Of a stretch of DNA of 64,000 nucleotides, positions 3,894 through 55,532 are shown one piece after another. The position numbers were made by a program, and so were the translations under genes. The stretch comes from a virus. The stretch is from IMG/VR virus record IMGVR_UViG_3300045988_114440, positions 37,704 to 101,703 of that record. One strand, written 5' to 3'. Positions within the stretch are counted from its first letter, which is position 1, and each line of letters starts with the position of its first letter. The notes under the pieces are model-generated. The model was not told the origin of the DNA and made no database searches. It was given only the letters and a program-made list of their open reading frames with translations.

Positions 3894-4652
3894 ATGAGCA
3901 TGTTAGGTTTTACATTCATCACAGACAGCAAGCTGTCAATGTACAGGGAGAAAGCTATTAAATCCGAAAATCTTGCAAAAGAAATTGAGGAAATGCAGGA
4001 TAAGGCCGCTTCTTACAAGGAAAGGCTTTCCGAACTCAAGTCAGATATCGCTTCAAAGGATAAAGAGATTTTATCTGTTGGCAAAGATCTTTCTGAGTCT
4101 AAGGAAAAGATTGACGCCTTGAAGGAAAATCAGAAAAAGTTGATAAAAAGCGTCAAGAAGAAAACGGAAGAACTTGATGCTGTCAATGTCGATCTTGACA
4201 AAGCCAGGTCTGATCTTGATGAGGCTAATTACAAAATCAGAAACTTGGAAGAAAAGAAAAACAGTATCTCATCTGAATTAAAAAAGAAATCAAATGCATT
4301 GATTGAAGCCAGGATCAGAATAGGAGATTTGGAAAACGAGGTTTCGGTTGGGTCCAAAACAATACAAGAGTTAGAATCGAAGCTGAAATTAATGCAAGTA
4401 GAATTAAGAGGCTACCAAATAGGTATAATCGGGAAAGATAAAAACAATGTCGCTGAGCCGGAATTGGATAAAGATGAGGAGTCAGATAAGGATGTGGCAG
4501 AATCGGAGAAATTTGATGAAAATAAGGAAGTTAAATACAATACGCTTCTTTATACAGATGTGATTCAGGAAGAAGCAGGTGACATTGTGGAGCCCGAAAA
4601 CGAAGCTGAACGAGTAAAAGACACTAAAAAGAAGAAGAAAAAAAAGAAGTAG
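3894..4652 (+). CDS. coiled-coil protein with poly-Lys C-terminus
   Basis: Heptad-like K/E/L-rich sequence; ends KKKKKKKK. Confidence 0.5.
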   Translation: MSMLGFTFITDSKLSMYREKAIKSENLAKEIEEMQDKAASYKERLSELKSDIASKDKEILSVGKDLSESKEKIDALKENQKKLIKSVKKKTEELDAVNVDLDKARSDLDEANYKIRNLEEKKNSISSELKKKSNALIEARIRIGDLENEVSVGSKTIQELESKLKLMQVELRGYQIGIIGKDKNNVAEPELDKDEESDKDVAESEKFDENKEVKYNTLLYTDVIQEEAGDIVEPENEAERVKDTKKKKKKKK

Positions 4653-51124: not shown

Positions 51125-51429
51125 CAACAGAACAACTAAATTATTTATTAAGAAAAGAGCTTTATGCTATAAAAAACCATAAAGACAATATTGATAGAAT
51201 CAAAAAAGAATATTTTGATTCCAATTATGGGTTAAAAGAAGGAGATAAGATCCGTATTTTACACGAAACAGGAGATGAAATGATAGGCTTCTTGAAAAAA
51301 GTTGAAGTATGTGAAGACGGAGATCTGTACTTGACAATCCAAAAACAAAACAAAAAAGGTGACAAAGGCAGAGGAACATGGAATATGTATCTATCATCAA
51401 AATCAATTAAAATTGAAAAATGTGTATAA
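51121..51429 (+). CDS. hypothetical protein
   Basis: ATGA-type overlap. Confidence 0.4.
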   Translation: MTTEQLNYLLRKELYAIKNHKDNIDRIKKEYFDSNYGLKEGDKIRILHETGDEMIGFLKKVEVCEDGDLYLTIQKQNKKGDKGRGTWNMYLSSKSIKIEKCV

Positions 51430-51433
51430 TGTC

Positions 51434-52558
51434 ATGAGAGTGTTAAGTTTATTTGACGGAATGTCATGTGGTCAAATAGCGTTAAAAGAAATAGGGATCA
51501 CGCCTGAAGTATATTATGCGTCAGAAATAGATAAGTTCGCTATTAAACAAACGCAATTAAATTTTCCTAATACGATACAAGTAGGAGATGTAAGGGATTT
51601 GAATGTAGAAGATCTTGGACACATAGATCTTATTTTAGCCGGCAGCCCATGTACGGATATGTCTTTTTCTGGAAAAAGAAAAGGGTTGTCTACCGTAGAA
51701 GGAATAGAAATCAAATCACTTAATGAGTATCTTGAATTAAAAAAACAAGGATTTAAGTTTGCCGGTCAGTCTTACTTATTCTGGGAGTTTATTCGTATTT
51801 TGAATGATGTAAGAAAAACTAATCCTGATGTATTATTTCTTCTTGAGAACGTTAAGATGGGAAAGAAATGGGAGCCGGTATTTGATGATGCTATAGGGTG
51901 TAAAGGCAATCATATTAATTCAGCACTTGTTTCCGCTCAAACCAGGAAACGTATTTATTGGACTAATATTCAAGGCGGCATTATCCCTCAACCTAAAGAC
52001 GAAGGTTTGACTATAAGTGATATAGCGGAATATGAAGTAGATGAAAAATATTACTTATCTGAAAAAGTTTTAAACAATTTAGCTTTTCACTTAAAAAGAA
52101 ATCACGACAAGGGAAATTATTATGGAGCTAATATTAAAACAAAAGATGAGAAATCCAATACTGTTACCGTAAAGGGTAAATACATATACGATCTTATTTG
52201 TGTAGCAATGAGAGGCAGGAATCCAGAAAAACCTACATGTAGAGAATCTGGTCTCACAACAGTTCAGAAAGATAATCTTATTTTCCAAATACCAAGAGGA
52301 TTTAACAAAGGTGGATTTCATGAAGATAAGGCTCCAACATTATCTTGTAATTCATATGATAGAAACAATTTTATCATACAGAGAGCATTACATGGCGATT
52401 TCAGAATAAGAAGATTAACCCCTACAGAGTGCTCCAGGTTACAGACTGTACCAGATTGGTATAAATGGGAATGCAGCGAAACCCAACAGTACAAGATGTT
52501 GGGAAACGGGTGGACTATTAAAGTGATTGAACATATGCTTAAAAGAATAAAAGAATAA
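51434..52558 (+). CDS. DNA (cytosine-5)-methyltransferase
   Basis: Motif I LSLFDGMSCG, motif IV GSPCTDMS, ENV (LLENVKM), QxRxR (SAQTRKRIYW), C-terminal GNGW; start moved to ATG 51434. Confidence 0.85.
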   Translation: MRVLSLFDGMSCGQIALKEIGITPEVYYASEIDKFAIKQTQLNFPNTIQVGDVRDLNVEDLGHIDLILAGSPCTDMSFSGKRKGLSTVEGIEIKSLNEYLELKKQGFKFAGQSYLFWEFIRILNDVRKTNPDVLFLLENVKMGKKWEPVFDDAIGCKGNHINSALVSAQTRKRIYWTNIQGGIIPQPKDEGLTISDIAEYEVDEKYYLSEKVLNNLAFHLKRNHDKGNYYGANIKTKDEKSNTVTVKGKYIYDLICVAMRGRNPEKPTCRESGLTTVQKDNLIFQIPRGFNKGGFHEDKAPTLSCNSYDRNNFIIQRALHGDFRIRRLTPTECSRLQTVPDWYKWECSETQQYKMLGNGWTIKVIEHMLKRIKE

Positions 52559-53088
52559 TGATTAGAGCAAGATTTTACATTAAAAAATCCGACTGCGGTA
52601 ACGACTACCGTCCAGTCAAATGGCCTATAAAATATCCATATTGGTGTAGTGCAGAATCCAGTAATTCATTTGTATTGGTAGCGTATGCTGAAGATGAAGA
52701 CAGCATAAAAAAACTGTGGCCGGAGGCGTATGATATTAATATCTTAGAGAAAGATACCGAAATTAGATTCACATTAAGATTTCCTAAACCGGAATGGTAT
52801 GAATTGTACGAAAGGGAATTAGAAGAATGTGATAGGTTTATATGGATTACAGATGCGTGCATGAGAGACGGTGTAATAAGAAAAGTAAAAGCTAAAATAG
52901 AAGATTATGGTGGTCTTTTGTTAGCCGACATTCCTGATAGGATCACTTCTTATGAAATAGGAAGGGATGCTTTTGAGAGCAAAGAAGAAGCTTTAAAACA
53001 TGCAGAGGAACGGAGAACGCACCTGATCGAGTCAATTAAGAAACAATTGAATGAACTTGAAAATCTAAAATTCGAATGTGATGATTAA
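52558..53088 (+). CDS. hypothetical protein
   Basis: Co-oriented ORF. Confidence 0.45.
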   Translation: MIRARFYIKKSDCGNDYRPVKWPIKYPYWCSAESSNSFVLVAYAEDEDSIKKLWPEAYDINILEKDTEIRFTLRFPKPEWYELYERELEECDRFIWITDACMRDGVIRKVKAKIEDYGGLLLADIPDRITSYEIGRDAFESKEEALKHAEERRTHLIESIKKQLNELENLKFECDD

Positions 53089-53794
53089 CTACGCAGCAAA
53101 AGCCAGGAAGGCTTATTTGATAAACAATTTCGATAAGATTCTTAACAGTCTTAACACACTTCATTCAACGGTTGAGACCATGACATTATTTGTAAACGAC
53201 CAGGCTTATAATTACATTCTTAAGCTAAAGGAAGTAATTAAAACCAGTCCTATGTATAAGCACAATATCAAGCGTCTTTTAAATGACATGGACAAAGAGA
53301 TAAAGAGGTACAATGCTTCTATCTACTACATAAATAAAGAGCGTAGTGGGGTTATAGCTGATATAACACAAGCGATGGAAGATTGCCTCATGCCATACAT
53401 AGACGACCTGGCCGGCGCTATAAGGGCAGCCGTGTGGTCGAAGGGCGTGTCCGAGGAGCGGACGGAAGCGGCGGTACTGTCCCTAATCGTATCCTCCTTG
53501 GCTACGACATCAGGCAGACTTATCTCAGGTGGATATCAGATCATGAAAGAAATGGGTGGAGGTCAAGGTGGTAATCCATTTACGTTTATGAGCATTGATA
53601 AGATAAGACACTTATCTACATCATTATCTGATGCTATTACCGGTGGAGAAATAGCTCTTGAAGAAAAAGAAGCCAATGACATAACTAAGGCAATGGATGT
53701 TTTTATTGAGAAAATGTCTGATTCGGATATTGTTGACAAGGTGATCAGCATACTCGAAGAGGCAGAATCTAAAAACAAGGAGGAACGATCGTGA
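53078..53794 (+). CDS. hypothetical protein
   Basis: Co-oriented ORF. Confidence 0.45.
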   Translation: MMINYAAKARKAYLINNFDKILNSLNTLHSTVETMTLFVNDQAYNYILKLKEVIKTSPMYKHNIKRLLNDMDKEIKRYNASIYYINKERSGVIADITQAMEDCLMPYIDDLAGAIRAAVWSKGVSEERTEAAVLSLIVSSLATTSGRLISGGYQIMKEMGGGQGGNPFTFMSIDKIRHLSTSLSDAITGGEIALEEKEANDITKAMDVFIEKMSDSDIVDKVISILEEAESKNKEERS

Positions 53795-53982
53795 ATTATT
53801 TGGATGGGTACGTGAAAGAAGTTCTTTCTGAGCCGTACTATGATGATTACGGCTCTGGGATTTTTAGGTGGTGGGTGGAAGTGTCTTACGTTTGTGAAGG
53901 AATAGGAGCTGTCACTACCTTAATGTTTGATACGAGAGAAGAAGCGGAAGCTGTAAAACCAGGTTACAAATTTTTATGCTGA
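53791..53982 (+). CDS. hypothetical small protein (GTG start)
   Basis: AAGGAGG Shine-Dalgarno before GTG. Confidence 0.35.
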   Translation: MNYLDGYVKEVLSEPYYDDYGSGIFRWWVEVSYVCEGIGAVTTLMFDTREEAEAVKPGYKFLC

Positions 53983-53989
53983 AAATAAT

Positions 53990-54127
53990 ATGAGGTATTT
54001 TGTTTTATTGATGGCACTTGTGTTATCATCATGTTCGCATGATGATAATCAGGTTAATGACGGATGGGTTATATATGATCTATCTCCTTTAAATGGTGAA
54101 CGTGTGATATATACCGATTATTATTGA
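53990..54127 (+). CDS. 45-aa lipoprotein with Bacteroidetes-type surface-export signal
   Basis: MRYFVLLMALVLSSC lipobox followed by SHDD (negatively charged +2 to +4 residues). Confidence 0.45.
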   Translation: MRYFVLLMALVLSSCSHDDNQVNDGWVIYDLSPLNGERVIYTDYY

Positions 54128-54130
54128 AAG

Positions 54131-54200
54131 TGTTTGTAAACACGTTTAACAAACAAATAAAGGATTTTCTTTGTTTTAGAAAAACAAAAGGGTATTTTTG
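54131..54200 (+). promoter_or_regulatory. inverted-repeat operator plus Bacteroidetes-type promoter (TTTG N19 TAttTTTG) for the Panacea gene
   Basis: IR TGTTTGTAAAC-ac-GTTTAACAAACA at 54131-54155; TTTG at 54170-54173; TATTTTTG at 54193-54200, 20 nt before ATG 54220. Confidence 0.4.
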
Positions 54201-54219
54201 TCATCAAAAAAATAGAAAA

Positions 54220-54714
54220 ATGGAAACGAGCCGAAAACTTCAAAAGATAGACTCATTAGTCTTATGTGAATATATTGTTAAGCATTATGGCTCTATGTCT
54301 CACTTAAAATTGCAAAAATTGTTGTTTTATTGTGACGCATACCATCTTGCTTACTTTGGTACAGAATTGGTTTCTGATAAATTTCAAGCGTGGGTTCATG
54401 GGCCGGTTAGCCGTAAAGTGTACGACAGTTTAAAAGACAAATCAATTTTATACTCAGAATTGTCCTATAGTTATGCTCCCGGTGATATAGATGTTGACGC
54501 TGAGTTTGCCAAATTAACAACAGACCAGAAAGATTTAGTGAGTACTGTTTTGGAAAATCTTTCAGAATGGAATCAGTTTCAGCTTGAAACAGCAATACAT
54601 AGAGAGTTGCCTTGGATACAAGCGCGTGTAGGTTATGGCCCAGCTGATAGATGCGAAGTTTATATCTCCAAAGAAACAACAATGAAGTTTTATAAATCAG
54701 AGTTAAATGCCTAA
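54220..54714 (+). CDS. Panacea-domain (DUF4065, SocA-like antitoxin domain) protein
   Basis: HLKLQKLLFYCDAYHLAYFG...FQAWVHGPVSRKVY matches the DUF4065 core; start set at ATG 54220 rather than the track TTG 54124. Confidence 0.55.
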   Translation: METSRKLQKIDSLVLCEYIVKHYGSMSHLKLQKLLFYCDAYHLAYFGTELVSDKFQAWVHGPVSRKVYDSLKDKSILYSELSYSYAPGDIDVDAEFAKLTTDQKDLVSTVLENLSEWNQFQLETAIHRELPWIQARVGYGPADRCEVYISKETTMKFYKSELNA

Positions 54715-54954
54715 ATCTTTTCAGAAAAAAAATAAAGAGTCTTTTATTGATTCAGTGGATACCAAGGGGAATACAATATCGGAGATTCTGTTAAGATCGT
54801 AAAAGTGAAATAATATGAAAAATAATTTAAAACTCGTATGTCCGAAATGTGGCACCCCTCACCAGCCTCATTCTCCGCACACGATGGATGCAAATGGATT
54901 TGAAAGGTAAACGTACCGAGCGGATGGAACACCCTTGGATGTGGTGGAAGAAAA

Positions 54955-55164
54955 ATGTATATCAATATCGAAGGGAAAGGCATTGTTGTATCAAATAACT
55001 GCTGGTGTCAAGGTGATGTTTCGGACGCATTCAAGGATCTGATGCCTGATAATGCTACCTGGGCTACGAAGGAGGAATTTGACAAAGCTCCTGTAGTAGG
55101 ATATATTATAGAAGGTATTGGTTTAGTTTTCACAAATAGGGAAGGTCATGAAATTAATGCTTAG
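54955..55164 (+). CDS. hypothetical small protein
   Basis: Isolated ORF in an otherwise noncoding tail region. Confidence 0.3.
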   Translation: MYINIEGKGIVVSNNCWCQGDVSDAFKDLMPDNATWATKEEFDKAPVVGYIIEGIGLVFTNREGHEINA

Positions 55165-55276
55165 AAACTTGTTTCATATTCCTCTTAGAATAGTTGAAAG
55201 GAAATCAACTAATGGGGAAGTAAGAAAGAAGAAAAGAGGGTAAAGGTAGTGGACTCTTGTTACAATAAACGGTTTT

Positions 55277-55323
55277 AACAATTATGGCACCAATAGTTCT
55301 TGGTGCCATAATTGTTTTTTATT
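55277..55323. terminator. strong rho-independent terminator at the convergence point (17-bp perfect stem)
   Basis: aacaattatggcaccaa-tagttc-ttggtgccataattgtt followed by TTTTTTATTT on the + strand. Confidence 0.7.
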
Positions 55324-55532
55324 TAAACTCATATCGCAATTGTTTGGTACAACATAAAAGAAACCGGTTCCCTATCATCCCTGACTGAGAACCGGTAAGA
55401 AAACAATTTCAGAAAAAATTAAACCTACATAATCTTTCAAGTAAGAACAAAAAACGTACAATCTACTCTTTGACGATGCTAATATAGCATATTGGAATCA
55501 TACCAAAACAATGCAAGTCCGATATTCTTCGT

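Follow-up and report, generated by a model that had tools for sequence, protein, structure and literature searches.

In a 64,000-nucleotide stretch of the IMG/VR virus record IMGVR_UViG_3300045988_114440 (positions 37,704 to 101,703; hereafter the window), we analysed the locus of panA, a gene encoding a standalone homologue of Panacea-domain antitoxins. Comparison with related genomes and with a donor locus indicates that an epsilon crAss-like phage very probably captured this gene together with its promoter, and without the toxin, from the panA-panT operon of a Bacteroidales phage or prophage, splitting a lipoprotein gene in the process. That the orphan antitoxin serves as a counter-defence against toxin-based defences of the host or of a prophage is, in our estimate, an even bet. 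For the explanation as a whole, in which a mosaic locus carries an orphan antitoxin that acts in counter-defence and spreads by recombination, we estimate a probability of roughly 0.55. A sequence-only reading of the same DNA had seen here a self-contained cassette made of a 45-amino-acid (aa) surface lipoprotein, a palindromic operator, a host-type promoter and a Panacea (DUF4065) protein; all four features are present, with the small corrections given below, but the cassette is a mosaic of two origins (Table 1).

A Pfam search of the 164-aa protein returned PF13274 (SocA_Panacea) with an E-value of 1.3e-20 and a score of 74.9 bits (cut-off 25.7), covering profile positions 1-112 of 113. The match clearly exceeds chance and supplies the hidden Markov model (HMM) search that had been proposed as a check on the DUF4065/Panacea assignment. 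Pfam found the Panacea domain alone in the protein, with ~30 residues preceding it and no DNA-binding or other domain. The PanA protein family is one of Bacteroidota (162-168 aa, 656 matches), and GenBank already holds a copy, annotated as DUF4065, in a phage metagenome-assembled genome (UVX68124.1). The GPV signature of PanA, reported to be critical for neutralisation (PMC8832971), lies at residues 61-63; G61, P62 and V63 did not vary across 31 family members, one of them the window protein, which has all 44 invariant residues of the family. An AlphaFold2 (AF2) model of PanA reached a predicted local distance difference test (pLDDT) score of 91.5.

Among named phages, the sole close relative of the window genome is the epsilon crAss-like phage crAssE-Sib (OR575929, 151 kb; locus L001); epsilon crAss-like phages are apparently known from metagenomic genome sequences only (PMC11054128). 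Using pairwise BLAST, we found that window positions 53000-54112 align to crAssE-Sib as far as the middle of its lipoprotein gene, and that homology is back at ~54750 (54750-54908 against L001 5164-5322, 93.7% identity). Between these two blocks, 637 bp in the window stand in place of 50 bp in crAssE-Sib, which has a conserved 63-aa gene followed by an intact 82-aa lipoprotein gene and no Panacea gene. To place this difference we sampled 81 relatives, namely crAssE-Sib and 80 IMG/VR loci located via a flanking 238-aa protein. The insert with panA was present in one of them and absent in the other 80, while the lipoprotein gene was intact (75-85 aa) in 64, lacking in 12 and of aberrant form in 5.

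The 45-aa open reading frame (ORF) upstream of panA begins with MRYFVLLMALVLSSC followed by SHDD, comprising a basic n-region, a hydrophobic core and an LSSC lipobox; the lipoprotein call was made by rule-based inspection with the lipobox pattern [LVI][ASTVI][GAS]C, and the lipobox is kept in relatives. Homology of this ORF to the intact 82-aa crAssE-Sib gene (L001 4991-5239) ends at 54112. It retains the signal peptide, the lipobox and 26 native mature residues and is cut after residue 41, its final four codons (TDYY) and stop coming from the inserted donor DNA, so that it is incomplete against orthologues of 77-82 aa. On these alignments, the 45-aa lipoprotein is a truncated remnant of a 77-82-aa gene split by the Panacea fragment. 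The GenBank label of the crAssE-Sib orthologue is “cell adhesive protein”. In another relative (L211, from 5910), a 125-aa chimeric lipoprotein ORF has arisen by deletion; it starts with the signal peptide and lipobox of the lipoprotein and continues with the C-terminal half of a 162-aa protein that is encoded further downstream.

The inserted DNA itself matched a donor locus over its whole length, window positions 54116-54756 being 99.4% identical to positions 4410-5050 of L237, a phage-like Bacteroidales contig from an ENA gut metagenome whose gene order is that of IMG/VR locus L090. Both loci carry an SPP1-type portal gene, and the phage collection held no named relatives of the donor. Donor homology starts one base past the stop codon of the donor's upstream gene and ends 50 nt into the gene that follows panA. 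In L237 and L090 this is an overlapping partner gene of 150-152 aa (P0122, 152 aa, at 5001-5459 in L237; 4488-4940 in L090), of which the window retains a 17-codon stub that overlaps the panA stop by 8 nt, as in the intact operons. A relaxed tblastn search with the partner family against the whole 64-kb window found this stub only and no further copy. The two-gene operon of a PanAT module is therefore missing from the window, where the partner is reduced to 17 codons, and what the phage carries is an antitoxin homologue without its toxin, taken from a cognate toxin-antitoxin locus.

The junctions of the insert lie at 54113-54116 and ~54750-54757, with short microhomology at the right one. They are identical in L086-L088 and common to all insert-bearing genomes, which argues for a single event; illegitimate recombination very probably placed the 641-bp piece within the lipoprotein gene, which is small and dispensable. 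Four differences separate window and donor over the insert, three synonymous and one non-synonymous (T126I, window 54596), the latter being the only amino acid change in PanA. Under a rough binomial estimate that assumes ~24% synonymous sites, three synonymous changes of four have P ~0.045, which is not decisive. The stub forms the start of a 31-aa ORF (54707-54802) with an A-run at 54725-54732 whose length ranges over 8-10 A among phage genomes, frameshifting the stub; this variation indicates that the ORF is under no coding constraint. As a candidate small toxin we rejected it, since it consists of the partner stub fused to lipoprotein-remnant sequence and is frameshifted between copies.

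To characterise the partner, we surveyed metagenomic contigs and 80 GTDB genome loci. Most loci with a PanA identity of at least 45% have a conserved gene of ~146-152 aa after panA, overlapping it or within a few tens of nucleotides. The predicted fold of the partner resembles the RelE/YoeB/HigB toxins, with a RelE-like alpha/beta fold, and searches of the protein against Pfam, NCBIfam, PADLOC and PDB sequences gave no match, leaving it outside the curated RelE/ParE families. The neighbouring small ORFs likewise fell in no named family in Pfam, NCBIfam, PADLOC or PDB sequences. The partner family is a candidate new PanT/RelE-like toxin family. The ~150-aa family is widespread in Bacteroidota (most of the bacterial loci L006-L076), with one Phocaeicola-labelled cluster on at least 1000 contigs, and has invariant D, R, H and K residues and no curated family model.

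These features place the donor close to the PanA/PanT type II systems (Kurata et al. 2022, PMC8832971; Ernits et al. 2023, PMC10440598). Shared with them are the standalone Panacea domain, the GPV signature and, in the donor and most bacterial relatives, the order of panA first in an overlapping operon with a downstream toxin-like partner; known PanT partners include mRNA-interferase-type toxins. The window differs in that its toxin gene is gone but for 17 codons, hence this locus does not count as a toxin-antitoxin system, and the donor differs in that its partner family is without a Pfam, NCBIfam or PADLOC model and is RelE-like by predicted fold only.

The adjacency of the two ORFs, the lipobox, the host-type promoter and the pairing of Panacea antitoxins with small membrane toxins, among others (PMC8832971), could be taken to describe a self-contained module (a toxin-antitoxin, superinfection-exclusion or defence moron), with the 45-aa surface lipoprotein as toxin or exclusion factor and the Panacea protein as both its antitoxin and a palindrome-binding regulator. 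We consider this extremely improbable. The two genes are of different origin, with the junction inside the lipoprotein ORF, and the conserved partner of the PanA family is the downstream RelE-like gene. The lipoprotein also needs no antitoxin, because in 64 relatives its gene is intact without a Panacea gene nearby. In its signal peptide, LSSC lipobox and acidic +4/+5 residues the stub resembles Bacteroidota surface lipoproteins with an export signal, as had been pointed out from the window ORF; it differs from them in being shortened from ~80 to 45 aa, and the acidic motif varies among orthologues, 41 of which have SHDDS behind the lipid Cys and others SNNHQ, KYDNQ, SRVNH or DIDNV.

The palindrome gives this module no better footing. 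Described as a near-perfect inverted repeat and as an operator for PanA, it is present but imperfect, its arms of 11 and 12 nt pairing only with a one-base bulge, and it is statistically ordinary, repeats of like quality forming 43 clusters in the window versus 11-32 (~21) in ten random sequences. Among panA loci, L237 has the repeat unaltered, L090 has it with one uncompensated change and L002 has half of it; more distant loci lack it. An operator would call for a palindrome kept across the family and a DNA-binding domain in the antitoxin; this one is donor-derived and kept in L237 and L090 only, and PanA has no such domain. Panacea is probably not an autoregulator of panAT operons (Ernits et al. 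2023, PMC10440598). Two other roles were rejected, that of a terminator (RNA folding of the region was no better than shuffles, z = -0.82, and a terminator scan did not pick it up) and that of a repeated phage regulatory motif as in a PeSL-like cassette (it occurs once only in the window). On these results, we treated the palindrome as intergenic sequence inherited from the donor. A perfect 11-nt palindrome (TTATCATCATG / CATGATGATAA), better than the flagged repeat, lies at 54023-54048 within the lipoprotein ORF over the lipobox codons and is probably coincidental.

The promoter fared better. We defined a Bacteroidota sigma-A-type promoter as TTTG at -33 and TAnnTTTG at -7, separated by a spacer of 19-21 nt and properly placed upstream of a gene; the window copy is an exact match (TTTG-N19-TAnnTTTG), as had been proposed, with 19 nt rather than 20 between the end of the box and the panA ATG (54220). 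The strict pattern occurs three times in the 64 kb versus 1.4 expected, without overall enrichment. The window copy is identical in the donor L237, and in ten loci (the window and nine others) that are otherwise unalignable there, a TAnnTTTG box, usually with the TTTG, occupies the corresponding position upstream of panA. Such conservation supports a real, native panA promoter that moved with the gene, and the predicted promoter is best read as panA's own rather than as a phage-wide feature.

Toxin-antitoxin systems can serve as phage defences. As the window holds an antitoxin without a toxin, we favour counter-defence over a toxin-antitoxin or exclusion module as the function of PanA. Under this proposal, host RNA polymerase would transcribe panA from its native promoter early in infection, and standalone PanA would bind and neutralise the cognate RelE-like toxin encoded by panAT modules resident in the cell, first and foremost that of the donor phage or prophage (as in lysogens of the donor), whose antitoxin and the phage PanA are 99% identical. 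Neutralisation would then block toxin-mediated abortive infection. Homologous recombination has since carried the allele into diverged genomes within the phage population. Standalone Panacea antitoxins directly neutralise toxins (PMC8832971, PMC10440598), and phage-encoded antitoxins or antitoxin mimics are established counter-defences (PMC11481870, PMC8266594, PMC3594212).

Among the latter, we compared the locus with T4 Dmd acting against RnlA/LsoA, phiTE pseudo-ToxI, TifA acting against ToxIN and the ICP1 DarG mimic (PMC8266594, PMC3594212, PMC10853763, PMC11481870). Like these, the window shows a phage with a putative toxin-less neutraliser of a host or prophage toxin, and that of phiTE was also taken from the defence locus itself. 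Unlike them, PanA has a function that is only inferred, is no unrelated mimic but a genuine homologue, 99% identical to the cognate antitoxin, and is carried by a crAss-like phage of Bacteroidales. We group the locus with orphan antitoxins borne by phages. The locus also resembles phage morons, as the sequence-only reading had suggested, in that panA has its own host-type promoter, was horizontally gained in a variable region and is absent in close relatives (the 80 noted above); it departs from them in that the insert lacks its own terminator (the first one downstream lies at 55277) and landed inside a coding sequence, not between genes. The further suggestion of a toxin-antitoxin-like or exclusion module finds no support, given the loss of the toxin gene. 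In the literature searched, we found no report of a Panacea orphan antitoxin as an anti-defence, nor of such a gene in crAss-like phages.

Spread of the allele was assessed in a larger collection of assemblies. The exact PanA protein occurred in 380 blocks of this collection, mostly contigs of 50-200 kb, and ten out of ten contexts shown for it were this phage with the 45-aa stub upstream. Across 14 insert-bearing genomes, the insert had 0-3 substitutions while the 1-kb flanks differed by up to 4.3-4.6%. Mismatch profiles showed a divergence-free tract from ~53600 to ~54800-54900 around the insert in backbones that were otherwise diverged; over the same 414 bp, divergence from crAssE-Sib is 8.5%. 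A divergence-free tract in diverged backbones shows that the allele moved between genomes by homologous recombination; this is the pattern expected for a favoured allele, not a proof of one. Throughout these copies panA stays open, including one with an in-frame 3-nt insertion, while the stub and the downstream genes are variously broken. A partner-less panA of the same family (~4007-4480), 59-63% identical, is also carried by a second lineage of Bacteroidales phages that is unrelated to this one (23 IMG/VR contigs; L115-L138 and L142). There the gene has a separate TAnnTTTG box, a hairpin following its stop codon, and neighbouring genes for a KilAC antirepressor and a DUF5675 protein.

The main rival to counter-defence is that panA is a neutral passenger, left behind in a decaying region when a phage or prophage in the same cell recombined illegitimately with this one; whether expressed or not, it would have no effect and would be lost in the end. 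We find this unlikely, but several observations favour it and weigh against our interpretation. The locus is a hypervariable junction of convergent + and - gene blocks, where the distance between conserved anchors ranges from 388 to 3844 bp across the 81 relatives and deletions, fusions and gene losses are common among them; the region around the insert is a gene graveyard, with extra deletions beside the insert in the window genome. In IMG/VR the insert is rare, being found on just 3 contigs versus 206 stretches encoding the flanking 238-aa protein. The 90% cluster of PanA contains rare broken alleles, namely a 57-aa nonsense form (5 contigs) and two N-terminally truncated forms of 139 aa (5 contigs), and one copy has an A>C change in the -7 box. 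Residue 126 is nearly invariant, being T in 28 of 31 family members, beside the conserved His127; T126I could impair PanA function, and could be adaptive or mildly damaging. Divergence from the donor is too low for a meaningful ratio of non-synonymous to synonymous rates (dN/dS), and the genomes sampled from the 380 blocks were chosen for an identical PanA protein. A DNA query spanning the insert junction, aimed at an unbiased sample of insert-bearing genomes, gave no matches in JGI metagenomes and, in IMG/VR, only the three insert-bearing contigs already known.

Against a neutral passenger stand the number of blocks with the exact protein, the linked divergence-free tract in backbones 4-5% apart, by which the allele moved and was not merely inherited, the integrity of ORF and promoter while stub and downstream genes break, and the independent retention of a solo panA by the second phage lineage. 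As to T126I, all listed crAss-lineage PanA variants carry I126; the residue lies at the end of helix 119-127, which H127 closes in the AF2 model. H120, an interface residue of B. choladocola PanA, is a lead only as the equivalent of I126/H127, as the two proteins could not be aligned.

PanA could also have some other role, as a proteolytic adaptor like SocA, a sensor targeting a host protein, an antitoxin to an unrecognised toxin encoded elsewhere by the phage, or simply as the donor of a promoter to downstream genes. We judge this improbable, although the Panacea protein SocA is a ClpXP adaptor, a sensor function has been proposed for Panacea (PMC8832971, PMC10440598) and no terminator separates panA from the downstream remnants. 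On the other side, the 64-kb window contains no partner homologue except the stub, the downstream genes are broken in the window genome, and the copy with which PanA shares 99% identity belongs to a canonical two-gene operon.

Table 1. Features of the panA locus, in window coordinates.
Feature	Position	Strand	Details
Truncated lipoprotein ORF, 45 aa	53990-54127	+	Translation MRYFVLLMALVLSSCSHDDNQVNDGWVIYDLSPLNGERVIYTDYY
Acquired fragment, 641 bp	54116-54756	+	Donor intergenic region, panA and first 50 nt of partner gene
Imperfect inverted repeat	54131-54155	.	TGTTTGTAAAC (54131-54141), spacer ac, GTTTAACAAACA (54144-54155)
Predicted Bacteroidota sigma-A-type promoter	54170-54200	+	TTTG (54170-54173), N19, TATTTTTG (54193-54200); imported with panA
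panA, standalone Panacea-domain antitoxin homologue, 164 aa, intact	54220-54714	+	PF13274 match
5' stub of RelE-like partner gene, 17 codons	54707-54757	+	MPKSFQKKNKESFIDSV, exact 17-aa match to N-terminus of P0122
C-terminal lipoprotein remnant	54751-54813	+	FSGYQGEYNIGDSVKIVKVK and stop, translated from the sequence; no start codon in reach
Fragments of 162-aa CxxC gene, 31 aa and 69 aa	54815-55164	+	ORFs 54815-54910 and 54955-55164; deletion of ~137-139 bp
Intrinsic terminator	55277-55316	+	17-bp stem, 6 GC pairs, T-run; ends the + strand block

The lipoprotein had been placed at the very end of the + block, but gene remnants run on from there to the strong intrinsic terminator, the first terminator-like site downstream of panA. 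The 162-aa CxxC gene is intact in L001 (5229-5717), in L086-L088 and in most other PanA-positive genomes, and its deletion is found also in L242. Further downstream, window positions 55148-55348, set against L001 5710-7231, contain a remnant of an 82-aa gene with a 124-bp deletion, and the window is missing two minus-strand genes (149 aa and 234 aa) found in crAssE-Sib, L087 and L245. A DNA cytosine-5 methyltransferase gene (51359-52558) is absent in L238, L241 and L244 and divided into two ORFs in L239, these genomes being otherwise near-identical and PanA-positive.

For annotation, the locus is a caution that a neat toxin-operator-promoter-antitoxin layout can be a recombination scar. What is new is the identification of the donor, the finding that a lipoprotein gene was split, a family of RelE-like partners without a curated model and the recombinational spread; sequences are at hand for donor, recipient and pre-insertion state alike. 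A concrete pair also comes out of the locus, the toxin candidate P0122 (152 aa) from a Bacteroidales phage or prophage and the captured antitoxin in a crAss-like phage.

CrAss-like phages are the most abundant phages of the human gut, and to our knowledge little is known of what limits them or how they answer host defences. We suggest, tentatively and as somewhat less probable than the counter-defence function itself, that resident Bacteroidales prophages restrict crAss-like phages by a Panacea/RelE-like module, and that one epsilon lineage may have stolen the cognate antitoxin, with the allele now sweeping by recombination. Panacea antitoxins can evidently be mobilised alone, as has happened at least twice in Bacteroidales phages. 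If such restriction and escape are real, panA would be the first Panacea-based anti-defence gene from nature and among the first anti-defence genes known in Crassvirales.

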